DNA of 64,000 nt, from NCBI RefSeq assembly GCF_000026545.1, contig NC_011601.1; one strand, written 5' to 3'. Positions 1 through 22,057 of the stretch are shown in pieces; the first letter of the stretch is position 1; each line of letters starts with the position of its first letter. The translations under genes and the position numbers were made by a program. Source of the stretch: Escherichia coli O127:H6 str. E2348/69 (GTDB lineage: Bacteria; Pseudomonadota; Gammaproteobacteria; Enterobacterales; Enterobacteriaceae). Under the pieces are notes generated by a model. That model worked only from the letters and a program-made list of their open reading frames with translations, was not told the origin of the DNA and searched no databases.

Positions 1-497
1 TTATTGCCACTGCCAATACGCGCGATCGCGGCGTCAATGAAATGAGTGCCGCGCTAAAGCGTCGCTTCGATTTTGAAACTGTCTTTCCGATTATGGATTT
101 CGCCCAGGAGCTGGAGCTTGTCGCCAGTGCTTCGGCGCGTTTGCTGGCCCATAGCGGCATTCCGCATAAAGTGCCTGACGCGGTACTGGAGTTACTGGTC
201 CGCACCTTTCGCGATCTGCGTGCCAACGGCGAAAAGAAAACGTCAATGGATACACTAACAGCGATTATGTCCACCGCTGAAGCCGTGAACGTGGCCCACT
301 CGGTGGGCGTCCGCGCCTGGTTTTTAGCGAATCGAGCAGGTGAGCCAGCCGATCTGGTGGACTGTATTGCCGGAACCATCGTCAAAGATAACGAAGAAGA
401 TCGCGCGCGCCTGCGCCGTTACTTCGAACAACGTGTTGCTACACATAAAGAAGCTCACTGGCAGGCTTATTATCAAGCTCGCCACCGCCTGCCGTGA
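1..497 (+). CDS. yehL: MoxR-family AAA+ ATPase, C-terminal part (5' end lies outside the window; stop at 495-497)
   Basis: Open frame from the window edge to TGA 495-497; recognised as the C-terminus of the MoxR-like ATPase that heads the yehLMPQ operon; the next gene starts 10 nt downstream. Confidence 0.8.
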   Translation, partial: IATANTRDRGVNEMSAALKRRFDFETVFPIMDFAQELELVASASARLLAHSGIPHKVPDAVLELLVRTFRDLRANGEKKTSMDTLTAIMSTAEAVNVAHSVGVRAWFLANRAGEPADLVDCIAGTIVKDNEEDRARLRRYFEQRVATHKEAHWQAYYQARHRLP

Positions 498-507
498 GGA
501 AAGATGT

Positions 508-2787
508 ATGAGCGAGCCGTTAATTGTCGGCATCCGGCATCATAGCCCGGCCTGCGCCCGGCTGGTGAAATCGTTAATCGAAAGCCAGCGGCCACGATAC
601 GTATTGATTGAAGGCCCGGCTGATTTTAATGACCGGGTAGACGAACTGTTTTTAGCCCACCAGCTTCCGGTAGCTATTTACAGTTATTGCCAGTATCAGG
701 ACGGTGCGGCCCCCGGGCGTGGTGCCTGGACGCCATTTGCTGAATTTTCGCCGGAGTGGCAGGCGCTACAAGCCGCACGTCGTATTCAGGCACAAACTTA
801 CTTCATCGATTTGCCTTGCTGGGCGCAGAGTGAAGAAGAAGACGAATCACCCGATACGCAAGATGACAGCCAGACCTTACTGCTGCGTGCCACCTGCATG
901 GATAACAGCGATACCCTGTGGGATCACTTATTCGAAGATGAAAGCCAGCAAACTGCATTACCCTCTACGCTGGCGCACTATTTTGCCCAACTGCGGGGCG
1001 ATTCCCCCGGAGATGCTCTCAATCGTCAGCGCGAAGCCTTTATGGCTCGCTGGATTACATGGGCGATGCAGCAAAACAATGGCGACGTGTTAGTCGTCTG
1101 CGGCGGCTGGCACGCTCCTGCACTGGCAAAAATGTGGCGCGAATGCCCGCAGGAAATTAACAAGCCAGAATTGCCCTCGCTGGCAGATGCCGTTACAGGT
1201 TGTTATCTCACACCCTACAGTGAAAAGCGCCTTGATGTGCTGGCAGGATACCTTTCCGGAATGCCTGCCCCGGTCTGGCAAAACTGGTGCTGGCAGTGTG
1301 GCTTACAGCAGGCAGGTGAACAACTGCTGAAAACGGTTCTTACCCGTTTGCGCCAGCACAAATTGCCCGCTTCTACCGCTGATATGGCTGCCGCTCATCT
1401 GCATGCGATGGCACTGGCACAGTTGCGCGGCCATACACTACCTCTACGCACTGACTGGCTGGATGCCATAGCTGGTTCGCTGATTAAAGAAGCCTTGAAC
1501 GCGCCGTTGCCGTGGAGCTACCGCGGGGTCATTAATCCCGATACCGATCCGATTCTGGTAACGTTGATAGACACATTAGCGGGTGACGGATTCGGTAAAC
1601 TTTCCCCTTCTACGCCACAACCGCCTCTGCCAAAAGATGTCACCTGCGAACTGGAACGTACCGGAATCTCTCTTCCGGCGGAGCTTACCTTAAATCGCTT
1701 TACCCCCGATGGACTGGCGCAAAGTCAGGTGTTACATCGGTTGGCAATACTGGAGATCCCAGGGGTTGTGCGCCAGCAGGGAAGTACACTGTCACTTGCA
1801 GGCAACGGTGAAGAATGCTGGAAATTAACCCGCCCGCTTAGCCAGCATGCTGCATTGATTGAGGCCGCCTGCTTTGGCGCCACACTCCAGGAAGCCGCAC
1901 GCCATAAATTAGAAGCCGATATGCTGGACGCGGGTGGAATCGGCTGTATCACCACATGTCTTAGCCAGGCAGCGTTAGCGGGTCTGGCGTCTTTCAGTCA
2001 ACAATTACTGGAACAACTCACATTATTAATCGCCCAGGAAAATCAATTCGCCGAAATGGGCCAGGCGCTGGAAGTGCTATATGCCTTATGGCGGTTGGAT
2101 GAAATCAGCGGTATGCAAGGCGCGCAGATATTACAAACGACGTTATGCGCGGCTATCGATCGCACACTCTGGCTATGTGAATCCAACGGCAGACCGGATG
2201 AAAAGGAGTTTCACGCTCACCTGCATAGCTGGCAGGCGCTTTGCCATATCCTGCGCGATCTACATAGCGGCGTTAATTTACCCGGCGTTTCGCTTTCTGC
2301 GGCAGTAGCCTTACTGGAGCGCCGCAGTCAGGCGATTCATGCCCCGGCGCTGGATCGCGGCGCGACTCTTGGCGCACTGATGCGTCTGGAACATCCCAAC
2401 GCCAGTGCCGAAGCGGCGCTGACGATGCTGGCGCAGTTATCCCCGGCACAATCCGGCGAGGCGCTGCACGGTTTGCTGGCGCTGGCCCGCCATCAACTGG
2501 CCTGTCAGCCGGTATTTATCGCCGGTTTCAGCAGTCATTTAAATCAACTGAGTGATGCCGATTTTATCAATGCCCTGCCCGATTTACGCGCGGCGATGGC
2601 CTGGCTACCACCACGAGAACGCGGGACGCTGGCGCATCAGGTGCTTGAGCATTATCAACTGGCGCAACTTCCCGTTTCGGCACTGCAAATGCCGTTGCAT
2701 TGTCCACCACAAGCCATTGCACATCATCAACAACTCGAACAGCAGGCACTGGCATCGCTGCAATACTGGGGAGTTTTCCATGTCTGA
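508..2787 (+). CDS. yehM: Uncharacterized 759-aa protein, second gene of the yehLMPQ operon
   Basis: ATG 508 preceded by GAGGA at 496-500; the track ORF 340-2787 is in the same frame and I take its upstream part as non-coding read-through; stop overlaps the yehP start. Confidence 0.85.
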   Translation: MSEPLIVGIRHHSPACARLVKSLIESQRPRYVLIEGPADFNDRVDELFLAHQLPVAIYSYCQYQDGAAPGRGAWTPFAEFSPEWQALQAARRIQAQTYFIDLPCWAQSEEEDESPDTQDDSQTLLLRATCMDNSDTLWDHLFEDESQQTALPSTLAHYFAQLRGDSPGDALNRQREAFMARWITWAMQQNNGDVLVVCGGWHAPALAKMWRECPQEINKPELPSLADAVTGCYLTPYSEKRLDVLAGYLSGMPAPVWQNWCWQCGLQQAGEQLLKTVLTRLRQHKLPASTADMAAAHLHAMALAQLRGHTLPLRTDWLDAIAGSLIKEALNAPLPWSYRGVINPDTDPILVTLIDTLAGDGFGKLSPSTPQPPLPKDVTCELERTGISLPAELTLNRFTPDGLAQSQVLHRLAILEIPGVVRQQGSTLSLAGNGEECWKLTRPLSQHAALIEAACFGATLQEAARHKLEADMLDAGGIGCITTCLSQAALAGLASFSQQLLEQLTLLIAQENQFAEMGQALEVLYALWRLDEISGMQGAQILQTTLCAAIDRTLWLCESNGRPDEKEFHAHLHSWQALCHILRDLHSGVNLPGVSLSAAVALLERRSQAIHAPALDRGATLGALMRLEHPNASAEAALTMLAQLSPAQSGEALHGLLALARHQLACQPVFIAGFSSHLNQLSDADFINALPDLRAAMAWLPPRERGTLAHQVLEHYQLAQLPVSALQMPLHCPPQAIAHHQQLEQQALASLQYWGVFHV

Positions 2788-3916
2788 ACTGAACGATCTT
2801 CTGACCACCCGTGAGCTACAACGCTGGCGATTAATTCTTGGCGAAGCGGCAGAAACGACGCTTTGTGGGCTGGATGACAACGCCCGGCAGATAGACCACG
2901 CGCTGGAGTGGCTGTATGGGCGCGATCCTGAACGGCTCCAGCGTGGTGAACGCTCTGGTGGATTAGGTGGCTCAAATCTCACCACCCCTGAGTGGATCAA
3001 CAGTATTCACACGCTGTTTCCGCAACGGGTGATCGAGCGGCTGGAAAGCGATGCCGTGCTGCGCTACGGCATTGAAGATGTGGTGACGAATCTCGACGTG
3101 CTGGAACGTATGCAGCCTTCTGAAAGCCTGCTACGCGCCGTTTTGCACACTAAACATCTGATGAATCCCGAAGTACTGGCTGCCGCCCGCCGGATAGTGC
3201 ACCAGGTTGTTGAAGAGATTATGGCGCGACTGGCAAAGGAAGTTCGTCAGGCTTTTTCTGGAGTACGCGATCGCCGTCGCCGCTCATTTATTCCACTGGC
3301 GCGAAACTTTGATTTCAAAAGTACTCTGCGCGCCAACCTGCAACACTGGCACCCGCAACACGGCAAGTTGTATATCGAATCCCCCCGCTTTAACAGCCGC
3401 ATTAAACGCCATAGCGAACAATGGCAACTGGTCCTACTGGTTGATCAAAGCGGATCAATGGTGGACTCGGTGATCCACTCCGCAGTGATGGCGGCCTGTT
3501 TATGGCAGTTACCCGGTATTCGTACCCATCTGGTGGCGTTTGACACCAGCGTCGTCGATCTCACGGCAGACGTTGTCGATCCGGTAGAATTATTAATGAA
3601 AGTGCAATTAGGCGGCGGGACCAATATCGCCAGTGCCGTGGAGTATGGTCGGCAACTTATTGAACAACCAGCGAAAAGCGTCATTATTCTCGTGAGCGAT
3701 TTTTATGAAGGTGGGTCATCATCATTGCTGACGCATCAGGTGAAAAAGTGTGTCCAGAGCGGCATCAAAGTGCTGGGGCTGGCAGCGCTCGACAGCACCG
3801 CAACGCCTTGCTATGACCGCGATATGGCCCAGGCGCTGGTTAATGTCGGCGCACAAATAGCCGCAATGACACCGGGCGAGCTGGCTTCCTGGCTTGCGGA
3901 GAATCTTCAGTCATGA
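2780..3916 (+). CDS. yehP: von Willebrand factor A (VWA) domain protein with a MIDAS motif
   Basis: ATG 2780 overlaps the yehM stop (ATGTCTGA); 378 aa; DQSGS motif at residues 222-226 (nt 3443-3457) sits after a hydrophobic strand (LVLLV), as expected for a MIDAS site. Confidence 0.85.
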   Translation: MSELNDLLTTRELQRWRLILGEAAETTLCGLDDNARQIDHALEWLYGRDPERLQRGERSGGLGGSNLTTPEWINSIHTLFPQRVIERLESDAVLRYGIEDVVTNLDVLERMQPSESLLRAVLHTKHLMNPEVLAAARRIVHQVVEEIMARLAKEVRQAFSGVRDRRRRSFIPLARNFDFKSTLRANLQHWHPQHGKLYIESPRFNSRIKRHSEQWQLVLLVDQSGSMVDSVIHSAVMAACLWQLPGIRTHLVAFDTSVVDLTADVVDPVELLMKVQLGGGTNIASAVEYGRQLIEQPAKSVIILVSDFYEGGSSSLLTHQVKKCVQSGIKVLGLAALDSTATPCYDRDMAQALVNVGAQIAAMTPGELASWLAENLQS

Positions 3917-5916
3917 ATTCACGACGTCCGGAATTATTAGAACTGACACCACAGGCACTGACGGCGTTAAGCAATGCCGGTTTTGTTAAGCGCAGCCTTA
4001 AGGAACTGGAAAATGGCAACGTCCCGGAAATCAGTCATGAGAACGGCGCTTTAATCGCCACCTTCAGTGACGGTGTCCGTACCCAGCTGGCGAACGACCA
4101 GGCACTGAAAGAGGCTCAGTGCACCTGCGGGGCCAGCGGCATGTGCCGTCATCGCGTGATGCTGGTGTTAAGTTATCAACGACTTTGTGCCACCGCCCAG
4201 CCTACGGAAAAAAAAGAAGAAGAGTGGGATCCGGCAATCTGGCTGAAAGAACTGGCTACCCTGCCCGATGCCACCCGCAAACGCGCGCAGGCGCTGGTCG
4301 CTAAAGGCATCACCATTGAGTTGTTCTGTGCGCCTGGCGAAATTCCCTCTGCCCGATTACCGATGAGCGATGTGCGTTTTTATTCCCGCAGCAGCATTCG
4401 CTTCGCACGCTGTGATTGCATTGAAGGCACACTTTGCGAACATGTCGCACTGGCTGTGCAAGCCTTCGTCGAGGCCAAAACTCAGCAAGCGGAATTTACT
4501 CATTTAATCTGGCAGATGCGCAGTGAACACGCCACATCATCTGATGATCCGTTTGCCAGCGAAGAAGGCAAAACGTGTCGTCAATATGTTCAGCAATTAA
4601 GCCAGGCATTATGGCTGGGCGGGATAAGTCAACCGCCAATCCATTACGAGGCCGCTTTCAGTCGCGCGCAGCAAGCGGCAGAACGCTGCAACTGGCGATG
4701 GGTGAGTGAATCGCTACGGCAATTGCGCGCCAGTGTTGATGCCTTCCACGCCCGTGCCAGCCACTACCATGCCGGAGAATGCTTACGTCAGCTTGCGGCA
4801 TTAAACAGTCGATTAAATTGCGCACAAAAGATGGCGCGGCGCGACAGTGTTGGTGAAGTTCCTCCTGTGCCCTGGCGCACGGTCGTTGGCGCTGACATTG
4901 CCGGAGAAGCAAAACTTGATCATCTGCGGCTGGTGTCTTTAGGTATGCGTTGCTGGCAGGATATTGAGCAGTATGGTTTACGCATCTGGTTTACCGATCC
5001 CGACACAGGAAGTATTTTGCATCTTTCGCGTAGTTGGCAGAGAAGCGAACAGGAAAACTCACCGGCAGCGACGCGTCGGCTGTTTAGTTTTCAGGCTGGC
5101 GCACTGGCAGGTGGGCAAATTGTTTCACAAGCTGCAAAACGCAGTGCCGATGGCGAGCTGCTGTTAGCGACCCGTAACCGCTTGAGTAGTGTTGTTCCAC
5201 TGTCGCCAGACGCCTGGCAAATGTTGAGCGCGCCGTTGCGCCAGCCGGGCATTGTGGCTTTGCGGGAATATTTACGCCAGCGTCCCCCCGCCTGCATACG
5301 ACCACTCAACCAGGTCGATAACTTATTTATTCTGCCGGTAGCGGAGTGTATTTCGCTCGGTTGGGATAGCAGCCGCCAGACGCTGGATGCGCAGGTAATC
5401 AGCGGCGAAGGGGAAGATAATGTGCTGACGTTATCCCTTCCGGCATCTGCCTGTTCTCCTTTTGCCGTTGAACGCATGGCGGCGCTTTTGCAACAAACAG
5501 ACGACCCCGTGAGTCTGGTTTCTGGCTTTGTCAGTTTTGTAGAGGGGCAATTGACACTGGAACCACGGGTGATGATGACAAAAACCCGCGCCTGGGCGCT
5601 GGACGCAGAAACTGCGCCTGTGGCACCGCTACCTTCTGCCAGCGTTCTGCCTGTGCCGCCTACCGCTCATCAGTTGCTGATGCGCTGCCAGGCGTTACTT
5701 ATTCAACTGCTCCATAACGGCTGGCGCTATCAGGAACAGAGTGCTATTGGTGAGGCAGAGTTGCTGGCGAATGACCTCACCGCGGTGGGTTTTTATCGGC
5801 TGGCACATGTGTTGGGACAATTTCGTAATACAGAAAGCGAGGCACGGGTAGAAGCAATGAATAACGGTGTTTTACTTTGCGAACAATTATTCCCCATGCT
5901 TCAGCAACAAGGATGA
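3913..5916 (+). CDS. yehQ: SWIM zinc-finger domain protein
   Basis: ATG 3913 overlaps the yehP stop (ATGA); two CxCx5CxH motifs at nt 4120-4152 and 4411-4443; 667 aa if this start is used, but the start is uncertain. Confidence 0.75.
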   Translation: MNSRRPELLELTPQALTALSNAGFVKRSLKELENGNVPEISHENGALIATFSDGVRTQLANDQALKEAQCTCGASGMCRHRVMLVLSYQRLCATAQPTEKKEEEWDPAIWLKELATLPDATRKRAQALVAKGITIELFCAPGEIPSARLPMSDVRFYSRSSIRFARCDCIEGTLCEHVALAVQAFVEAKTQQAEFTHLIWQMRSEHATSSDDPFASEEGKTCRQYVQQLSQALWLGGISQPPIHYEAAFSRAQQAAERCNWRWVSESLRQLRASVDAFHARASHYHAGECLRQLAALNSRLNCAQKMARRDSVGEVPPVPWRTVVGADIAGEAKLDHLRLVSLGMRCWQDIEQYGLRIWFTDPDTGSILHLSRSWQRSEQENSPAATRRLFSFQAGALAGGQIVSQAAKRSADGELLLATRNRLSSVVPLSPDAWQMLSAPLRQPGIVALREYLRQRPPACIRPLNQVDNLFILPVAECISLGWDSSRQTLDAQVISGEGEDNVLTLSLPASACSPFAVERMAALLQQTDDPVSLVSGFVSFVEGQLTLEPRVMMTKTRAWALDAETAPVAPLPSASVLPVPPTAHQLLMRCQALLIQLLHNGWRYQEQSAIGEAELLANDLTAVGFYRLAHVLGQFRNTESEARVEAMNNGVLLCEQLFPMLQQQG

Positions 5917-7779: not shown

Positions 7780-9461
7780 GCCTCGTCCCTCCATGGTAGT
7801 CGTAACGTTATTCGGGTGTAACTATCAGGCTCACAGGCGACGCTTATCCCATAGTCATCGCCAAACCGTTCACGTAAACGCTTATCCACCAGATTCATCC
7901 CCAGCCCACTGGCATTGGTTACCGGTTGATACAAACCGGCATTGTCTTCGATCTCCAGCATCAAATGTTGCCCCTCACGTCGGGCGCTGATTGCCACTCG
8001 CCCTGTATCCAGCAGTTGTGATGTCCCATGTTTAATGGCGTTTTCCACTATCGGTTGCAGGGTAAACGCGGGCAATTGCTGCTGGGATAATTCTTGCGGA
8101 ATAGCAATGTTGACCTGCAACCGCGACTGGAAGCGCGCCTTTTCAATTTGCAGATAAGCGTTCACATGTTCAATTTCGTCGGCGAGAGTAACAAACTCCG
8201 AAGGCCGCTTTAAGTTTTTGCGGAAAAAAGTAGAAAGATACTGCACCAGCTGGCTGGCCTGTTCGCTGTCGCGGCGGATCACCGCTTTAATGGTGTTAAG
8301 CGCATTAAACAAAAAATGGGGATTCACCTGGGCGTGAAGCAGTTTGATCTCTGACTGGGTGAGCATCGCTTTTTGCCGCTCATATTGCCCGGCGAGGATC
8401 TGCGCCGAAAGCAGTTGCGCAATCCCCTCGCCCAGCGTGCGGTTGATTGAACTGAATAAACGGTTTTTGGCCTCATACAATTTGATGGTACCCATCACTC
8501 GCTGATTTTCACCACGCAACGGAATGACCAGCGTCGACCCCAGTTTGCATTGCGGATGCAAAGAGCAACGGTAAGGCACTTCGTTGCCATCAGCGTAGAC
8601 CACTTCACCGGTTTCAATCGCTTTTAAGGTATAAGTCGAAGAAATCGGTTTGCCGGGTAAATGGTGGTCGTCACCAATTCCGGTAAAGGCCAGCAATTTC
8701 TCTCGATCGGTAATCGCGACTGCACCAATATCCAGCTCCTGATACAGCACCTGTGCCACTTTCATGCTGTTCACTTCGTTAAACCCCTGGCGCAAAATGC
8801 CTTCCGTCGAGGCCGCCACTTTCAGCGCAGTGGCAGAAAAAGCCGAAGTGTATTTTTCAAACATCGCGCGTTTATCGAGCAATATACGCATAAACAGTGC
8901 CGCGCCGACGGTATTGGTGACCATCATTGGCGCAGCAATATTACTCACCAGACGCACCGCATCTTCATAAGGTCGGGCGATCGCCAGGATAATCAACATT
9001 TGCACCATTTCAGCGACGAACGTGACGGCACCGGCGGTAATGGGGTTAAAGACTTTATCAGTGCGCCCGCGACGGATCAGGATGCTGTGTACCATGCCAC
9101 CGAGCAATCCTTCAACGATGGTCGAGATCATGCAACTTAGCGCGGTCATGCCCCCCATCGAATATCGATGTAACCCGCCGGTCAGACCAACCAGCCCACC
9201 GACGACCGGACCGCCGAGTAAGCCGCCCATTACCGCACCTATCGCACGGGTATTGGCAATAGAATCGTCAATGTGCAACCCAAACCAGGTGCCCATGATG
9301 CAGAAGATGGAAAAGACGATGTAGCAGAGAAATTTATGCGGCAGACGAACCGTGACCTGCATTAACGGTATGAATAATGGCGTTTTACTCATTAACCACG
9401 CAATGACTAAAAAAACGCACATCTGCTGAAGCAGCAGCAACACCAGATTAAAATCGTACAT
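7776..9461 (-). CDS. btsS: LytS-type membrane sensor histidine kinase
   Basis: Multi-pass hydrophobic N-terminus followed by a histidine-kinase core; 561 aa from the Met giving [11 protein letters not shown]. Confidence 0.9.
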
Positions 9462-9682
9462 ACCCGCAAACCACACTTCCCTTTAAAACGCGTAACATAC
9501 ATTGCTTGCGTTTAACTTTCTTTGAACTCTTGCAGAAAAATGAGAATTCGTGAGTACGATCACTCAAAATCGCCTGGCAAAAATAAAATCACCCTATAGA
9601 TGCACAAAAAACAGGCAAAACTACCTGGTTCGCAAAACTGCGTCTAAAGTTAAACCGGGACCTCGCGAGCAAGGGTGAGACG

Positions 9683-10414
9683 ATGGCGCTTTACACAATT
9701 GGTGAAGTGGCGTTGCTTTGTGATATTAACCCTGTCACGTTACGCGCGTGGCAGAGGCGTTACGGATTGCTGAAACCGCAGCGGACAGACGGCGGTCATC
9801 GGCTGTTCAACGATGCCGATATTGACCGGATCCGCGAGATCAAACGCTGGATCGACAACGGTGTGCAGGTCAGCAAAGTAAAAATGCTGCTCAGTAATGA
9901 AAATGTTGATGTGCAGAACGGCTGGCGCGATCAGCAAGAAACATTACTGACTTACCTGCAAAGCGGCAATCTGCATAGCCTGCGAACGTGGATCAAAGAG
10001 CGCGGTCAGGATTACCCCGCCCAGACACTCACCACACATCTGTTTATTCCTCTGCGCCGACGGCTTCAGTGCCAACAACCGACTCTCCAGACGCTGCTGG
10101 CGATCCTCGACGGCGTACTGATCAACTACATCTCTATTTGCCTGGCTTCGGCGCGCAAAAAACAGGGTAAAGATGCACTGGTGGTTGGCTGGAATATTCA
10201 GGATACCACTCGTCTGTGGCTGGAGGGCTGGATTGCCAGTCAACAAGGATGGCGCATTGATGTCCTCGCCCACTCGCTCAATCAACTACGCCCTGAACTG
10301 TTCGAAGGCCGTACATTGCTGGTGTGGTGCGGTGATAATCGAACCTCCGCCCAACAACAGCAACTCACCCGTTGGCAGGAACAAGGCCATGATATTTTCC
10401 CACTCGGCATTTAA
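9683..10414 (+). CDS. mlrA: MerR-family transcriptional regulator
   Basis: N-terminal MerR-type helix-turn-helix (YTIGEVALLCDINPVTLRAWQRRYGLL); 243 aa. Confidence 0.9.
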   Translation: MALYTIGEVALLCDINPVTLRAWQRRYGLLKPQRTDGGHRLFNDADIDRIREIKRWIDNGVQVSKVKMLLSNENVDVQNGWRDQQETLLTYLQSGNLHSLRTWIKERGQDYPAQTLTTHLFIPLRRRLQCQQPTLQTLLAILDGVLINYISICLASARKKQGKDALVVGWNIQDTTRLWLEGWIASQQGWRIDVLAHSLNQLRPELFEGRTLLVWCGDNRTSAQQQQLTRWQEQGHDIFPLGI

Positions 10415-10473
10415 TGATTCGTTAACAAATGCGCTTTACTGTACAATCCTTTCGTTAACATAAGGAGTGCATT

Positions 10474-10581
10474 ATGCGCATAGCTAAAATTGGGGTCATC
10501 GCCCTGTTCCTGTTTATGGCGTTAGGCGGAATTGGTGGCGTCATGCTCGCAGGTTATACCTTTATTTTGCGTGCTGGCTGA
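10474..10581 (+). CDS. yohO: Small membrane protein, 35 aa
   Basis: ATG 10474 with AAGGAG at 10462-10467; single hydrophobic helix ([35 protein letters not shown]); below the ORF-track size cut-off; 3' end overlaps yehW on the opposite strand. Confidence 0.7.
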
Positions 10582-11293
10582 ACGCCTGCACCAGCCTTTC
10601 AAACAGGCGGTCTGCGATGATCGCCGCCAGTGCCACCAGTAACGCCCCCTGGATCACATACGCGGTATTAAATCCGCTAAGCCCGATGATGATCGGCGTA
10701 CCCAGCGTGCTGGCCCCTACCGTTGAGGCGATCGTCGCCGTGCCAATGTTGATAATCACCGAAGTTCGCACGCCCGCCAGAATCACCGGAGCTGCCAGCG
10801 GTAGCTCGACCTTACGCAGTCGCTGACTACAGCTCATTCCCATGCCTTTGGCAACTTCGGTCACGCTGGCATCAATCGATCCCAGCCCGGCAAGTGTCGC
10901 CTGCAGGACGGGCAGCACACCGTAAAGGATCAAGGCGATAATCGCCGGTTGCTGACCAAAGCCGATCACCGGAACGGCAATCGCCAGCACTGCAACGGGC
11001 GGAAAAGTCTGTCCAACGGCGGCAATAGTTTCCACCAGTGGACGAAATTCCGCGCCCCAAGGGCGAGTGACAGCAATTCCGGCACCAGTACCAATGATCA
11101 CCGCAAACAAACTCGAAATTCCCACCAGCCAGAAATGAGCCAGTGCCAGAGCTGCAAAGCTTTCCTGCTGATAAACGGGTCGTGGCAGTTGTGGGAACAA
11201 GGCAGCAAACAGCGGCTGGCTGTAAGGCAGCCAGAAAATCAGCGCCACAAACAGAGCAATCAGCCAGAACAGCGGATCGCGCAACATCTTCAT
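10562..11293 (-). CDS. yehW: ABC transporter permease (osmoprotectant-type)
   Basis: Hydrophobic multi-pass ORF of 243 aa; last gene of the osmF-yehYXW operon. Confidence 0.9.
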
Positions 11294-11297
11294 ACGA

Positions 11298-12224
11298 TTA
11301 CGCCTCCTCCAGCAGATCCTGAAAATGCAGCGTGCCGCAAGGCTCGCCCTGCGTGTTCACCACCGGCAGCACCTCGCATCCCCGCGCGACAAACAGAGAA
11401 AGCGCATCGCGTAGCGTCATCTCTTCTGCCAGCGCCTCACCTTCTGCCCGTTCTTCGCGACGCACGTAATCTGCCACGCTACGTAACGAAAGCAGGCGTA
11501 CACCCAGCTCACTACGACCAAAAAACTGGCGGACAAAATCATTCGCCGGACGAGTCAGCATCGTCAGCGGATTACCCTGCTGCACCACTTCACCGTGATC
11601 CATCAATACAAGATGTTCTGCCAGCCGTAGCGCCTCATCAATATCATGAGTGACCAGCACAATAGTGCGCCCCTGCAAACGGTGAATGCGCGTCATCTCT
11701 TGTTGCAACGCGCCACGCGTTACCGGGTCCAGCGCGCCGAATGGTTCATCCATCAGCAAGACTTGCGGATCGGCAGCCAGCGCGCGGGCCACTCCCACAC
11801 GTTGCTGCTGACCGCCGGAAAGCTGATGCGGATAACGCTCACGCAAATCCGGCTCCAGCCCCAGTAGCGCCATTAATTCGTCGATACGATCGTCGATCCG
11901 CGCCCGTGACCATTTTTGCAATTGCGGCACGGTGGCGATGTTTTGTGCCACGCTCCAGTGGGGAAACAGGCCAATAGATTGAATGGCATAGCCCATCCGG
12001 CGGCGCAACTCCAGTACTGGCAGCGAGCGAATTTCTTCTCCGGCAAAGCGGATCACCCCGCTGTCATGCTCCACCAGGCGGTTAATCATTTTCAGGGTAG
12101 TGGATTTACCGGAACCCGACGTGCCAATCAGTACCGAAAAACTCCCTTCCTGAAAATTGAGATTGAGATCGTTAACGGCTTTTTGTGCGCCGAACAGTTT
12201 GCTGACATGGCTAAATTCAATCAT
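11298..12224 (-). CDS. yehX: ABC transporter ATP-binding protein
   Basis: Walker [13 protein letters not shown] signature LSGGQQQR and Walker B LLMDEP are all present; 308 aa. Confidence 0.92.
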
Positions 12225-13374
12225 TACGTTTCACCTTCAGCAGTGCGATAAGCAAATCGAACAGCGCGTCGGTAAGCACCGCCAGAACAATTACCGGGAT
12301 CACCCCCAGCAACACTAAATCAATGGCACTGCTTAGCAGCCCCTGGAAAACCAGCGCACCAAAACCGCCTGCGCCGATTAACGCCGCAATCACCGCCATG
12401 CCAACGGTTTGTACCATCACCACCCGCAGGCTGTGCAGAAATACCGGTAACGCCAGCGGTAACTGAACATGCAGGAAACGCTGCACCCCGCTCATCCCCA
12501 TCGCTCTGGCGCTCTCCAGCACATCGCGCGGGATCTGGTTCAAGCCGACTACTACGCCGCGCACCAGCGGCAGCAAGGCATAGAGCACCAGCGCAATCAG
12601 TGCGGGTGTCATTCCGGTTCCTGCTATGCCGAGCATTCCCAGCCACGGAAAGGCCGTAACCAGCGCGGCAAGCGGCGCAATCAGCAGGCCAAAGAGCGCT
12701 ATCGAAGGCACGGTCTGAATGACATTCAGCAGAGAAAAAATCGCTCCCTGCCGCGCGGTGGAAAAGTAGCACCAGATGCCCAACGGCACACCAATCACTA
12801 ACGCAGGCAGCACCGCACCAAACAGCAACGTCAGATGTTGTGCCAGCGCGTCGTCAAACACATCCTGACGGTTGGCGTATTCTTTCATTAACGAGAGATC
12901 GTTAAGCGTGCCGGAGTACAGCAACCACAGCGGAATAATGGCAATCTGCATATGCAACAACCAGCGCCACAGCGGATGCGTGGAGATTCGGCGGATGGCA
13001 TCGCTACAGGCCAGCAGTGCCAGCGCCGCAGCCAGCCAGAAACCACTGCCGAGGCTGGTACGCGCCAGCGCACTGCCATTTTGCGCCAGTTGTGTCGCCG
13101 CCTTTCCAGCTCCCCACACCAGCAATACGAAGACGAATTGCGCCAGAATGAGTGCAAAAATGCTGCCTTTTTTAGCGGGAATAAAACAGGCTGTCAGCCA
13201 GGCGCAACCAACGCCCACCAGCATCCAGAGAGTTTGCGGCCACAGCTGCCAGAGATGACGCCCCTCACCCGAAACTAAACGATTAGGTGCGTAACTGATA
13301 AACGGCAGCGCCGCTGCGATTGCCGTCAGCAACAGCAGCAGCGCCAGAACAGGATTAATACGGAAATAAGTCAC
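12217..13374 (-). CDS. yehY: ABC transporter permease
   Basis: Hydrophobic multi-pass ORF of 385 aa; overlaps the yehX start by 8 nt. Confidence 0.9.
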
Positions 13375-16980: not shown

Positions 16981-18696
16981 ATGTCTTCCATGACAACAAC
17001 TGATAATAAAGCCTTTTTGAATGAACTTGCCCGTCTGGTCGGTCATTCACACCTGCTCACCGATCCCGCAAAAACGGCCCGCTATCGCAAGGGCTTCCGT
17101 TCTGGTCAGGGCGACGCGCTGGCTGTCGTTTTCCCTGGCTCACTACTGGAATTGTGGCGGGTGCTGAAAGCCTGCGTCACCGCTGACAAAATTATTCTGA
17201 TGCAGGCTGCCAATACAGGCCTGACCGAAGGATCGACGCCAAACGGTAACGATTATGATCGCGATATCGTGATCATCAGCACCCTGCGTCTCGACAAGCT
17301 GCACGTTCTCGGCAAGGGCGAACAAGTGCTGGCCTATCCGGGCACCACGCTCTATTCACTGGAAAAAGCCCTCAAACCGCTGGGACGCGAACCGCACTCA
17401 GTGATTGGATCATCGTGTATAGGCGCATCGGTCATCGGCGGTATTTGTAACAACTCTGGCGGCTCGCTGGTGCAACGTGGCCCGGCGTATACCGAAATGT
17501 CGTTATTCGCGCGTATAAATGAAGACGGCAAACTGACGCTGGTGAACCATCTGGGGATTGATCTGGGCGAAACGCCGGAGCAGATCCTTAGCAAGCTGGA
17601 TGACGATCGCATCAAAGATGACGATGTGCGCCACGATGGTCGTCACGCCCACGATTATGACTATGTCCACCGCGTTCGTGATATTGAAGCCGACACGCCC
17701 GCACGTTATAACGCTGATCCGGATCGGTTATTTGAATCTTCTGGTTGCGCAGGGAAGCTGGCCGTCTTTGCGGTACGTCTTGATACCTTCGAAACGGAAA
17801 AAAATCAGCAGGTGTTTTATATCGGCACCAACCAGCCGGAAGTGCTGACCGAAATCCGCCGTCATATTCTGGCTAATTTCGAAAATCTGCCGGTTGCCGG
17901 GGAATATATGCACCGGGATATCTACGATATTGCGGAAAAATACGGCAAAGACACCTTCCTGATGATTGATAAGTTAGGCACCGACAAGATGCCGTTCTTC
18001 TTTAATCTCAAGGGACGCACCGATGCGATGCTGGAGAAAGTGAAATTCTTCCGTCCGCATTTTACCGACCGTGCAATGCAAAAATTCGGTCACCTGTTCC
18101 CCAGCCATTTACCGCCGCGCATGAAAAACTGGCGCGATAAATACGAGCATCATCTGCTGTTAAAAATGGCGGGCGATGGCGTCGGTGAAGCCAAATCGTG
18201 GCTGGTAGATTATTTCAAACAGGCCGAGGGCGATTTCTTTGTCTGTACGCCGGAGGAAGGCAGCAAAGCGTTTTTACACCGTTTCGCCGCTGCGGGCGCA
18301 GCAATTCGTTATCAGGCTGTGCATTCCGATGAAGTCGAAGACATTCTGGCGCTGGATATCGCTCTGCGGCGTAACGACACCGAATGGTATGAGCATTTAC
18401 CGCCGGAGATCGACAGCCAGCTGGTGCACAAGCTCTATTATGGCCATTTTATGTGCTATGTCTTCCATCAGGATTACATCGTGAAAAAAGGCGTGGATGT
18501 GCATGCGTTGAAAGAACAGATGCTGGAACTGCTTCAGCAGCGTGGCGCGCAATACCCTGCCGAACATAACGTCGGTCATTTGTATAAAGCACCGGAGACG
18601 TTGCAGAAGTTTTATCGCGAGAACGATCCGACCAACAGTATGAATCCGGGGATCGGTAAAACCAGTAAGCGGAAAAACTGGCAGGAAGTGGAGTAA
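16981..18696 (+). CDS. dld: FAD-dependent D-lactate dehydrogenase
   Basis: 571 aa from MSSMTTTDNKAF; recognised as the membrane-associated D-lactate dehydrogenase. Confidence 0.9.
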   Translation: MSSMTTTDNKAFLNELARLVGHSHLLTDPAKTARYRKGFRSGQGDALAVVFPGSLLELWRVLKACVTADKIILMQAANTGLTEGSTPNGNDYDRDIVIISTLRLDKLHVLGKGEQVLAYPGTTLYSLEKALKPLGREPHSVIGSSCIGASVIGGICNNSGGSLVQRGPAYTEMSLFARINEDGKLTLVNHLGIDLGETPEQILSKLDDDRIKDDDVRHDGRHAHDYDYVHRVRDIEADTPARYNADPDRLFESSGCAGKLAVFAVRLDTFETEKNQQVFYIGTNQPEVLTEIRRHILANFENLPVAGEYMHRDIYDIAEKYGKDTFLMIDKLGTDKMPFFFNLKGRTDAMLEKVKFFRPHFTDRAMQKFGHLFPSHLPPRMKNWRDKYEHHLLLKMAGDGVGEAKSWLVDYFKQAEGDFFVCTPEEGSKAFLHRFAAAGAAIRYQAVHSDEVEDILALDIALRRNDTEWYEHLPPEIDSQLVHKLYYGHFMCYVFHQDYIVKKGVDVHALKEQMLELLQQRGAQYPAEHNVGHLYKAPETLQKFYRENDPTNSMNPGIGKTSKRKNWQEVE

Positions 18697-18701
18697 AAAT
18701 T

Positions 18702-18727
18702 ACGGATGGCAGAGTATCGCCATCCGT
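18702..18727. terminator. Hairpin (ACGGATGGC / GCCATCCGT) between convergent dld and pbpG; U-run on the minus strand
   Basis: 9-bp perfect stem read from sequence; the minus-strand transcript would continue into AUUUUUAC. Confidence 0.6.
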
Positions 18728-18734
18728 CATTCAT

Positions 18735-19667
18735 TTAATCGTTCTGTGCCGTCTGCCCCGCCGCCGCCATTTGGGCGGCTTTTTGTTTTTTATAGCTCAA
18801 CGCTGCTGCCGGAACAGGCATCACTTTACCGGTTTCAATCCAGGTACGCAGGCGGCTGGCATCGGCAAAATGGGTATATTTGCCAAACGCGTCCATCACT
18901 ACCAGCGCCACCGGTTTATTATTGATAACCGTGCGCATCACCAGACAATGGCCCGCCGCATTGGTAAAACCGGTTTTGGTTAACTGAATATTCCAGTTAT
19001 CACGATACACCAGATGGTTAGTATTGCGGAACGGCAGCGTATACGTCGGGTTAGAGAAGGTTGCCATATCTTCCCGGGTAGTACTTAACTGCCCGATCAA
19101 CGGATATTGTTTGCTGGCAATAAGTAGTTTGGTTAAGTCACGGGCGGTTGAAACGTTATGCACCGACAATCCGGTTGGTTCAACAAAGCGCGTGTTGTTC
19201 ATTCCGAGCGATTTCGCTTTCGCATTCATCGCCTTAATAAAGGCTTTGTAACCACCGGGATAATGGTGCGCAAGGCTTGCCGCCGCACGGTTTTCTGAAG
19301 ACATCAACGCCAGCAACAGCATATCTTTACGGCTGATTTCGCTGTTCAGTCGTACGCGCGAATAGACCCCTTTCATCTCCGGCGTCTGGCTGATATCCAC
19401 TTTTAGTTTTTCATCCAGCGGCAGTCGTGCATCCAGCACAACCATCGCGGTCATTAATTTGCTGATAGACGCAATCGGACGCACCAGATCCGGGTGGTTC
19501 GAATAGATCACTTTGTTGGTATTCAGATCAACAATCATCGCGCTACCGGAGGCAATTTCCGGTTGTGACACGGTGGTAGCGGCTGCCGTTTTCGCAACGG
19601 CCTGCGGTGCCAAAGGCACAGCCAGCATCAGGGCCAGGCTAAATAAAGAAACTCGAAATTTCGGCAT
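18735..19667 (-). CDS. pbpG: D-alanyl-D-alanine endopeptidase (PBP7)
   Basis: Signal peptide; SISK (SxxK) active-site motif; 310 aa. Confidence 0.9.
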
Positions 19668-19840
19668 GATGAGCATTCAGATAGTGGTTCACGCGCACGG
19701 GTTGCGCACCGCCGGAGTAAGGATTTACTGAGGCTAGCGACGCCATCATAACGAGCAAAAAGTGCGATCGTCAAAGAAGAATCGTGAGGAAATGCTGCAT
19801 TGCTGACATTTACGCCAGCAATGCAGCGCAAAAGAACTTT

Positions 19841-20428
19841 CTAGAACAAACGATAACCGTAGCCCCATAGTATAACGGTAAGGGCGAGCAGCACTTCCAG
19901 CACCAGCACGCCTATCGCCAGTGTCGAACTGGAGAAGCTAAGTCCTTCCTCTTTGTTGATATTCAGGAAGCTCGGAATACCGAGATACAGCAGGTAGCCG
20001 GTGTAAAACAGCGCCACCGTGCCGACCAGCGCACACAACCAGACCAGCGGGTAAAGCGCCACCAGACCGCTTAAAAACAGCGGAGTTGCAACGTAGCCCG
20101 CGAAGACCATGCAGTGCGCAAGTGACGGACGCTGCGGATAATTACGCGCCATCCACCAGATGACCCGCCCCATCACCGCAACCCCAGCCAGCATAACGCC
20201 GTAAAACAAGACAGCCAGCGCCAGTCCGGTAAACCAGGATAACTTCAGGATAGTGCCATCGCCAAAATTCCAGCCAATCTGTGTAGTGCCAATGAAGGCG
20301 CAAATCACCGGAATCGCCGCCATCAGCAAAACGTGGTGGGTGTAGTGGTGAGAAATCGTTTCGTTTTCACGATTAATCACCTGCATTTCACGATCGGGAT
20401 GGGAAAACAGACCCCAGACATGGCTCAT
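19841..20428 (-). CDS. yohC: Inner membrane protein, Yip1-like
   Basis: Hydrophobic 195-aa ORF from MSHVWGLF. Confidence 0.8.
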   Translation of the reverse strand: MSHVWGLFSHPDREMQVINRENETISHHYTHHVLLMAAIPVICAFIGTTQIGWNFGDGTILKLSWFTGLALAVLFYGVMLAGVAVMGRVIWWMARNYPQRPSLAHCMVFAGYVATPLFLSGLVALYPLVWLCALVGTVALFYTGYLLYLGIPSFLNINKEEGLSFSSSTLAIGVLVLEVLLALTVILWGYGYRLF

Positions 20429-20597
20429 ACCGCCCCCTTGTTGTGAGTTCATGAACCTGACAGTTCAAGTATAAGTCAGCTTGTGATTATTTTTTGTTCA
20501 CTCATGTAATTTGCACCGTCTGATGTACGTCCTTTTTCAGCGTGAATGATTCACAGGGTGTATGCTTACAGGCAAGCAAAGGGAGACAGACTGTCCT

Positions 20598-21176
20598 ATG
20601 GATCTCAATACACTCATCTCACAATATGGTTATGCCGCGCTGGTGATCGGTAGCCTGGCGGAAGGTGAAACCGTGACTTTGCTGGGAGGCGTTGCGGCAC
20701 ATCAGGGGCTATTAAAGTTCCCGCTGGTGGTACTTTCTGTGGCGCTTGGCGGCATGATTGGCGACCAGGTGCTTTATCTGTGCGGGCGGCGGTTTGGCGG
20801 CAAGCTGTTACGCCGTTTCTCGAAACATCAGGATAAAATTGAGCGGGCGCAGAAACTTATCCAACGCCATCCGTATCTGTTTGTCATTGGTACGCGTTTT
20901 ATGTATGGCTTTCGGGTCATTGGCCCGACGCTGATTGGTGCCAGCCAGCTGCCGCCGAAAATCTTTCTGCCGCTGAATATTCTCGGCGCATTTGCCTGGT
21001 CGCTGATTTTTACCACTATCGGTTACGCTGGTGGGCAGGTGATTGCGCCGTGGTTGCACAATCTCGACCAGCATTTGAAGCACTGGGTCTGGTTGATTCT
21101 GGTCGTGGTTCTGGTGGTAGGCGTGCGCTGGTGGCTGAAACGGCGCGGGAAGAAAAAGCCGGATCATCAGGCGTAA
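20598..21176 (+). CDS. yohD: DedA-family inner membrane protein
   Basis: 192 aa from MDLNTLISQYGYAALVIGSLAEGETV. Confidence 0.85.
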   Translation: MDLNTLISQYGYAALVIGSLAEGETVTLLGGVAAHQGLLKFPLVVLSVALGGMIGDQVLYLCGRRFGGKLLRRFSKHQDKIERAQKLIQRHPYLFVIGTRFMYGFRVIGPTLIGASQLPPKIFLPLNILGAFAWSLIFTTIGYAGGQVIAPWLHNLDQHLKHWVWLILVVVLVVGVRWWLKRRGKKKPDHQA

Positions 21177-21183
21177 AACTATT

Positions 21184-21266
21184 GCCCTGGATAAGGTGTT
21201 CGCGCCGCATCCGACATCCGGTGCACCATGCCTGATGCGACGCTGGCGTGTCTTTTCTGGCCTAAC
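21184..21266. repeat. REP pair (BIME-like) between convergent yohD and yohF
   Basis: CTGGATAAGGTGTTCGCGCCGCATCCGACATCCGG and GCCTGATGCGACGCTGGCGTGTCTTTTCTGGCC are two REP-type palindromes. Confidence 0.8.
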
Positions 21267-21295
21267 CCAATGAAATAACCACGCACCTCACTGCG

Positions 21296-22057
21296 CTATT
21301 CTGGGTTGAACTGCGGATTCGCCAACATAAAGCCGCCATCCACTATCAACGACTGCCCGGTGGTGTAATTTGCGCCCTCCGAACAAAGCCATACCACCAG
21401 GCTGGCAATCTCATGCGTTGTGCCAAAACGTCGCAAGGGAATCGAAGGCTCCGCGTCAGGCTTCACGTCGCCGCCATCCATGCCGTTCATTGGCGTGGCG
21501 ATCGCCCCAGGTGCGACTGCATTCACCAAAATCTTATGCCTGACCAGCTCAAGCGCCATCGCTTTGGTTAGCCCACCGAGTGCATGTTTAGCGGCTGTAT
21601 AGGCGCTGGCATCCGGCAGCGGCGTATGTTCATGTACCGACGTAATGTTGATGATGCGACCGCCCTGCCCTTGTTTCACCATCTGGCGGGCCGCAATTTG
21701 CGAGCATAAAAATGCACCATCAACATCAACGGTAAAAATCTTGCGCCACTCATCGAAAGCCATATCAAGAAACGGCGCTTTGGTCATTGTGCCCGCATTA
21801 TTCACCAGCACATCGATGCGCCCCAGCCGTTGAATAAGTTTCTCCAGCGCCATTGCCCCCTCTGGCAGTTTACCGAGATCCAACTGCACCATCTCCGCAC
21901 GTACGCTGTGGCTAACCACCTCACGCGCGGTATCTTTTGCCCCTTCTTCATCTGAGTGCCAGGTAATACCAATATCAAACCCCTGCTGCGCCAGTAATAA
22001 CGCGCACTCTTTGCCGATCCCCGAATCGGAGGCAGTAATAATCGCAACCTGTGCCAT
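21296..22057 (-). CDS. yohF: Short-chain dehydrogenase/reductase family oxidoreductase
   Basis: N-terminal Rossmann motif TASDSGIG; 253 aa from MAQVAIITAS. Confidence 0.88.
   Translation of the reverse strand: MAQVAIITASDSGIGKECALLLAQQGFDIGITWHSDEEGAKDTAREVVSHSVRAEMVQLDLGKLPEGAMALEKLIQRLGRIDVLVNNAGTMTKAPFLDMAFDEWRKIFTVDVDGAFLCSQIAARQMVKQGQGGRIINITSVHEHTPLPDASAYTAAKHALGGLTKAMALELVRHKILVNAVAPGAIATPMNGMDGGDVKPDAEPSIPLRRFGTTHEIASLVVWLCSEGANYTTGQSLIVDGGFMLANPQFNPE

Follow-up and report, generated by a model that had tools for sequence, protein, structure and literature searches.

The alignment of homologues and the structure model confirmed that YehP of Escherichia coli O127:H6 str. [quoted passage not shown] We consider it probable (about 80%) that YehP is a MIDAS-bearing VWA cofactor of the MoxR-type ATPase YehL and that the MIDAS face is there for a client. 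The preliminary description of this DNA had read YehP as a VWA partner of a MoxR ATPase, and this reading is supported in silico by the comparison of homologous proteins and by the predicted fold. Taken by itself, the MIDAS of YehP is correctly recognised but unremarkable; it lies in a domain annotated before and was already known. YehL is one of two MoxR ATPases of E. coli and the type of a subfamily of its own, and MoxR proteins generally co-occur with VWA proteins carrying a MIDAS (PMC3893208, PMC11432383). The novelty is low because both the domain and the pairing of YehL with a VWA protein are already annotated and published. The features discussed below are collected in Table 1; the window is the whole stretch of 64,000 nucleotides that was analysed.

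Table 1 Features of the yehP region, with positions counted from the first nucleotide of the window
Feature	Position	Strand	Basis or remark
yehL, 3' part, MoxR-type AAA+ ATPase	1..497	+	Annotation; the window starts within the gene
yehM, DUF5682	508..2787	+	Pfam DUF5682, E = 3.4e-98
yehP CDS	2780..3916	+	378 aa + stop; vWA domain-containing protein (RefSeq)
All-helical N-terminal domain of YehP, residues 1-159	2780..3256	+	AF2 secondary structure
VWA_CoxE domain, residues 151-372	3230..3895	+	Pfam PF05762
Candidate "finger", residues ~190-214, before the first VWA strand	3347..3421	+	Position of the NorD finger
First VWA strand, residues 215-222, WQLVLLVD	3422..3445	+	DSSP of the AF2 model; ends in the first MIDAS Asp
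MIDAS loop 1, D222-Q-S224-G-S226 (DxSxS)	3443..3457	+	Translation; conservation
MIDAS loop 2, G278-G-G-T281, with T281 as predicted Thr ligand	3611..3622	+	Conservation, AF2 model, alignment
Published +1 ribosomal frameshift cassette, GTGGAGTATGGTCGGC	3638..3653	+	Exact match; FSscan, PMC2790909
MIDAS loop 3, D307 in ILVSDF, predicted second Asp ligand	3698..3700	+	Conservation; AF2 model
yehQ, SWIM zinc-finger protein	3913..5916	+	Pfam SWIM, E = 6.6e-8; annotation

The yehP gene starts with the ATG at 2780 and stops at 3914-3916. The protein encoded in the window is 100% identical to the annotated YehP of E2348/69, and the RefSeq CDS coincides with it. Nucleotides 3443-3457 (gat caa agc gga tca) encode D-Q-S-G-S, residues 222-226, and the hydrophobic stretch WQLVLLV lies immediately N-terminal to D222. 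Hence, the position, the numbering and the hydrophobic strand LVLLV, all given in the preliminary description, agree with the translation. On its own, DxSxS arises in 9.9% of YehP shuffles and occurs six times in 32,725 residues of stop-free stretches of the window. When four hydrophobic residues are placed in front of it, the frequency in the shuffles is 0.085%, and the YehP site is the single occurrence in the stop-free stretches. The YehP motif goes beyond chance because its D, S and S are conserved (121/121) and because it occupies the canonical position in the fold.

Conservation was assessed with HMMER against 1.84 billion cluster representatives, which gave 1635 relatives of YehP. The conservation set consists of YehP and 120 listed representatives of these 1635 that cover the VWA part (n = 121); each of the 120 homologues stands for a different 50%-identity cluster, and their identity to YehP ranges from 32 to 57%.

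D222, S224 and S226 are identical in all 121 aligned sequences, as is the neighboring M227. Among the 120 database clusters closest to YehP, 116 have DxSxSM, and the four without it are shortened proteins of 294-360 aa. Residue 223 differs in P0006, the representative of an E. coli cluster with 4729 member sequences, which reads DLSGS instead of DQSGS. As Q223L sits at an x position of DxSxS, the MIDAS ligands of P0006 are intact.

T281 and D307 are the Thr and Asp ligands that the preliminary description had expected downstream of the motif, and both were found. T281 is identical in 120/121 sequences and follows G279 and G280, which are identical in 121/121; D307 is likewise identical in 121/121. 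The spacing is nearly fixed as well, with 59 residues from D222 to T281 in 119/121 sequences and 26 residues from T281 to D307 in 120/121. Within the species, yehP is found at an identity of at least 90% in 5334 of 5426 complete E. coli genomes.

Alignment to VWA profiles placed the motif in a VWA domain. YehP matches Pfam VWA_CoxE (PF05762) with E = 1.7e-71 and 240.7 bits at a gathering threshold of 26.4, and the match spans the entire profile (positions 1-222 of 222). A second profile, VWA_2, matches residues 217-308 with E = 4.8e-8. NCBIfam gave only sub-threshold matches to YehP (a cobaltochelatase subunit, E = 0.0012, and PRK05325) and no functional name. A sequence search of PDB chains with YehP gave no match, and a profile search of solved structures gave only marginal VWA matches (best E = 0.025), in which the GGGT of YehP aligns with the GGQT and GGT of the solved VWA proteins 8s05 and ITIH4. 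A comparison at the level of the fold was therefore needed.

The AF2 model of YehP was built from a 70-sequence alignment (A1) and reached a mean pLDDT of 87 and a pTM of 0.75, with values above 90 for most of the VWA part. According to DSSP, the strand 215-222 of the model ends at D222, and the helix 225-242 comes next. T281 lies within the loop that precedes helix 283-293, and D307 follows directly on strand 300-306. In the model, these placements of D222, T281 and D307 are those of the three canonical MIDAS loops, and by alignment and model D307 is the predicted second Asp ligand after the fourth strand. The five side chains probably converge on one site, as judged from the topology of the fold and not from distances.

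Foldseek compared the model with the PDB and returned VWA domains at a probability of 1.0. The matches include BatB, CMG2/ANTXR2, CLCA1, NorD (9qhg_G, E = 2.3e-6), the MIDAS domain of MDN1, integrin I domains, and Rpn10. The longest alignments are those with AAA+-coupled VWA domains (NorD 212, MDN1 193, and Rea1 185 residues), whereas alignments with classical VWA domains cover approximately 150-175 residues. This suggests that AAA+-coupled VWA domains share extra elements with YehP. A motif outside a Rossmann-like VWA fold would have spoken against a MIDAS; AF2 and Foldseek place it inside a confidently predicted VWA fold.

The N-terminal part of YehP is helical in the model, and its motif RWRLxLG at residues 15-21 is conserved in alignment A1 (70 sequences). 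CoxE-type vWA proteins have a 4-helical N-terminal domain (PMC7159879), and the predicted helical N-terminus of YehP fits this type. The segment in front of the first VWA strand is of interest by its position. Residues 190-214 are weakly conserved, with a length of 24-29 residues in 120/121 sequences, and form short strands in the AF2 model at a pLDDT of approximately 68. By analogy, this segment may be the equivalent of the NorD finger.

A further element lies between the second and the third MIDAS loop. A +1 ribosomal frameshift cassette has been reported for yehP by FSscan (PMC2790909), and its codons GGT and CGG are codons 290 and 291 of the gene. The +1 frame reads …VEYG-GNLLNNQRKASLFS, followed by a stop. 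As the cassette is located between T281 and D307, the +1 product would keep DxSxS and T281 and lose D307. Judged from the reading frame, strand 300-306 and, with it, the C-terminal third of the VWA fold would be missing as well. Neither G290 nor R291 is a conserved residue in the wider YehP family; any frameshift of this kind is therefore probably limited to organisms closely related to E. coli.

In E. coli, the gene order is yehI (DUF4132), yehK, yehL (AAA_5, MoxR type), yehM (DUF5682), yehP, and yehQ (SWIM). Two overlaps between neighboring genes, of 8 nt for yehM and yehP and of 4 nt for the yehP stop and the yehQ start, suggest that their translation is coupled. The yehK gene (L001 1612-1928, upstream of the window) carries a frameshift in E2348/69, where its annotation is that of a pseudogene.

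YehL is encoded two genes upstream of yehP (full gene at L001 2630-3718) and matches Pfam AAA_5 with E = 1.7e-34. Its Walker A motif GEPGTAKS is intact and invariant in five family members of 39-55% identity. The Walker B motif VRFEEI has Glu-Glu instead of the usual Asp-Glu, and this acidic pair is invariant in the same five sequences.

The linkage between the VWA gene and a MoxR gene is also present at three distant loci (L003, L006, and L007; 34-56% identity), and one further contig is too short to judge. At L003, with a homologue of 41% identity, the order is DUF4132, AAA_5, DUF5682, and VWA_CoxE, followed by a 472-aa gene without a Pfam match. At L006, with a homologue of 34% identity, it is AAA_5, DUF5682, VWA_CoxE, and SWIM, so that the SWIM gene follows the VWA gene. 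L007, on a contig of GCA_022841245.1, has two tandem sets of AAA_5, DUF5682 and VWA together with WGR-DUF4132 proteins; the sets are located at 7885-12543 and 17856-21543, one being fused and the other split. The gene neighborhood of YehP is that of a MoxR cofactor. For P0255, which is 32% identical to YehP, no MoxR gene is present within 7 kb, and the linkage to MoxR therefore does not extend to all family members.

A large DUF4132 protein is encoded directly upstream of the MoxR gene in E. coli (yehI, L001 1-1551), at L003 (3576-6674) and at L007 (2227-7883, here with a WGR domain). As this arrangement recurs in E. coli and two distant genomes, the unit seems to consist of DUF4132, MoxR, DUF5682, VWA and SWIM proteins. 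We compared the C-terminal part of YehL as well as YehM, YehP and YehQ with PADLOC-DB 2.0 and obtained no match at E <= 0.01. A known anti-phage defence system was rejected as an assignment since no PADLOC model matches any of the tested Yeh proteins.

YehM and YehP are fused into a single protein in 32 of the 111 representative clusters that cover YehP. In the fusions, a YehM-like DUF5682 part is followed by a complete YehP part, a layout shared with NorD, which has a large N-terminal part and a C-terminal VWA domain. Because of these fusions, YehM and YehP of E. coli look like the split version of one cofactor. The fused proteins (e.g., P0123, P0125, and P0237) have approximately 1100-1470 aa, and E. 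coli has the split form. The DUF5682 protein at L003 (7750-9564), a YehM homologue, has a faint Pfam match to TraB_PrgY_gumN, and the N-terminus of E. coli YehM contains VGIRHHSP…LIEGP. From these sequence features, YehM and its L003 homologue may have a TraB/Tiki-like domain.

NorQ/NorD is the closest studied precedent and the best available analogy for YehL/YehP. In NorD, the MIDAS variants T534V and D562N kept the co-purification of NorQ and abolished the activation of nitric oxide reductase (PMC9976466). Cryo-EM revealed that the VWA domain of NorD plugs the AAA+ pore with a finger (residues 403-448) and that its MIDAS points away from the AAA+ ring (PMC13036017). NorD, the cofactor of NorQ in cNOR maturation (PDB 9qh8, 9qhg), is only 10-16% identical to YehP. 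The two differ in that YehP belongs to another Pfam family (VWA_CoxE) and that its ATPase is of the YehL subfamily, whereas that of NorD is of the CbbQ/NorQ subfamily. Moreover, the putative N-terminal partner of YehP in E. coli is a separate protein (YehM, DUF5682), and its finger is a candidate only.

CoxE acts with the MoxR ATPase CoxD in the maturation of the Cu/Mo cluster of CO dehydrogenase. It is likened to YehP via the profile PF05762, which both have in common, and CoxE-type vWA proteins and YehP both have a helical N-terminal domain. In contrast to CoxE, YehP has no cox genes nearby; its neighbors are DUF5682, SWIM and DUF4132 genes. ViaA/RavA of the same organism is likened to YehP/YehL by description, as each consists of a MoxR ATPase and a VWA protein encoded in one operon, but RavA and YehL belong to different MoxR subfamilies (PMC3893208). 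Clients have been proposed for RavA-ViaA (Nuo and Frd) and none for YehL and YehP. Integrin I domains and the anthrax toxin receptor CMG2 have the prototype MIDAS but serve extracellular adhesion in eukaryotes and have no AAA+ partner. Their ligand spacings are approximately 69 and 33 residues, compared with 59 and 26 in YehP.

In the mechanism that we propose, D222, S224, S226, T281 and D307 would bind a single divalent metal ion (probably Mg2+), with its coordination completed by an acidic side chain from another protein. Both steps are modelled on integrin I domains and NorD, from which we infer metal binding and the kind of ligand that the MIDAS accepts. The body of the VWA domain would rest on the hexamer of YehL, with contacts possibly made by the segment in front of the first strand and by the C-terminus. 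The client would be bound at the MIDAS face, and the ATP-driven movements of YehL would be passed on to it. YehM would most likely be the client-specific N-terminal half of the cofactor. YehQ and YehI are candidate clients or further adaptors, and YehM is also a candidate.

A more far-reaching possibility is that a widespread, uncharacterised MoxR machine of five parts captures its client through the invariant MIDAS of YehP. The machine would be composed of a DUF4132 protein (in some cases with WGR), YehL, a DUF5682 protein, the VWA protein and a SWIM protein. We put this forward as a tentative proposal that has the odds against it. The accessory domains WGR and SWIM hint at a nucleic acid-linked or conflict-type role, as opposed to the insertion of metal cofactors by NorQD and CoxDE. 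The frameshift could add a further layer to client capture, as its product would lack the last MIDAS ligand; this is a speculative thought.

The MIDAS could instead be structural and bind an acidic residue of YehM, YehQ or YehL permanently, so that it holds the assembly together. The fusion of YehM and YehP in 32/111 clusters and the gene overlap in E. coli, with the translational coupling that it suggests, would suit a permanent complex, and no client of YehP is known. Furthermore, the extended peptide that can be bound by a vWA MIDAS (Kaur et al., PMC7159879) could be that of a partner. Nevertheless, the MIDAS of NorD is dispensable for binding of the ATPase and needed for the action on the target (PMC9976466). 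A reversible metal contact would be less necessary with a covalently fused partner; the fusions nonetheless conserve the MIDAS just as strictly. Hence, we regard a structural MIDAS as unlikely. Another role would be that of a metallochaperone that supplies a client enzyme with a cation; such a role has been discussed for CoxD-CoxE and the chelatases. The Pfam family of YehP bears the name of CoxE, a protein of CO dehydrogenase maturation, and MoxR/VWA pairs are often linked with metal-cofactor insertion (PMC13036017, PMC7159879). The NCBIfam similarity to a cobaltochelatase subunit points the same way but is weak and far below the cut-off. In the systems that have been studied, the MIDAS metal is a cofactor of adhesion and not the inserted metal, and the NorQD authors consider NorQD an unlikely source of the iron (PMC9976466). 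No metalloenzyme gene is located beside the yeh cassette at any locus examined. We consider metal delivery very improbable.

Finally, the motif might be a relic or a chance match without a present function, as might be the case if the operon had been acquired horizontally and were now decaying. The bare motif does turn up in about one of ten YehP shuffles, the adjoining yehK is a pseudogene in E2348/69, and no phenotype has been tied to the motif. These points are outweighed by the invariance or near-invariance of five ligands with fixed spacing in 121 sequences, by the retention of yehP in nearly all complete E. coli genomes at high identity, and by the canonical place of the motif in the VWA fold. 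A chance match was rejected on the conservation and the fold position, and the probability that we assign to a relic or chance origin is close to nil. The preferred reading therefore stays that of a VWA cofactor of YehL, in which we infer the docking on the ATPase from the NorQ/NorD precedent.

In the literature, we found no functional study of YehP, YehM, YehQ or DUF5682, and matches to these names were mostly author names. The literature found on the yeh genes consists of the frameshift study with FSscan and of articles on MoxR proteins in which YehL is named as a subfamily. A swarming difference cited in the former (PMC2790909) is the single lead to a phenotype of yehLMPQ. The uncharacterised five-gene Yeh system is the more interesting object than the motif itself. 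The five MIDAS residues provide an entry point into this conserved operon, yehI-yehQ, which is present in approximately 98% of the complete E. coli genomes. Substitution of D222, S224, S226, T281 and D307 should uncouple the YehL motor from its target. If the MIDAS is indeed the site of client capture, point mutants in these positions would be a handle to trap or release the client.
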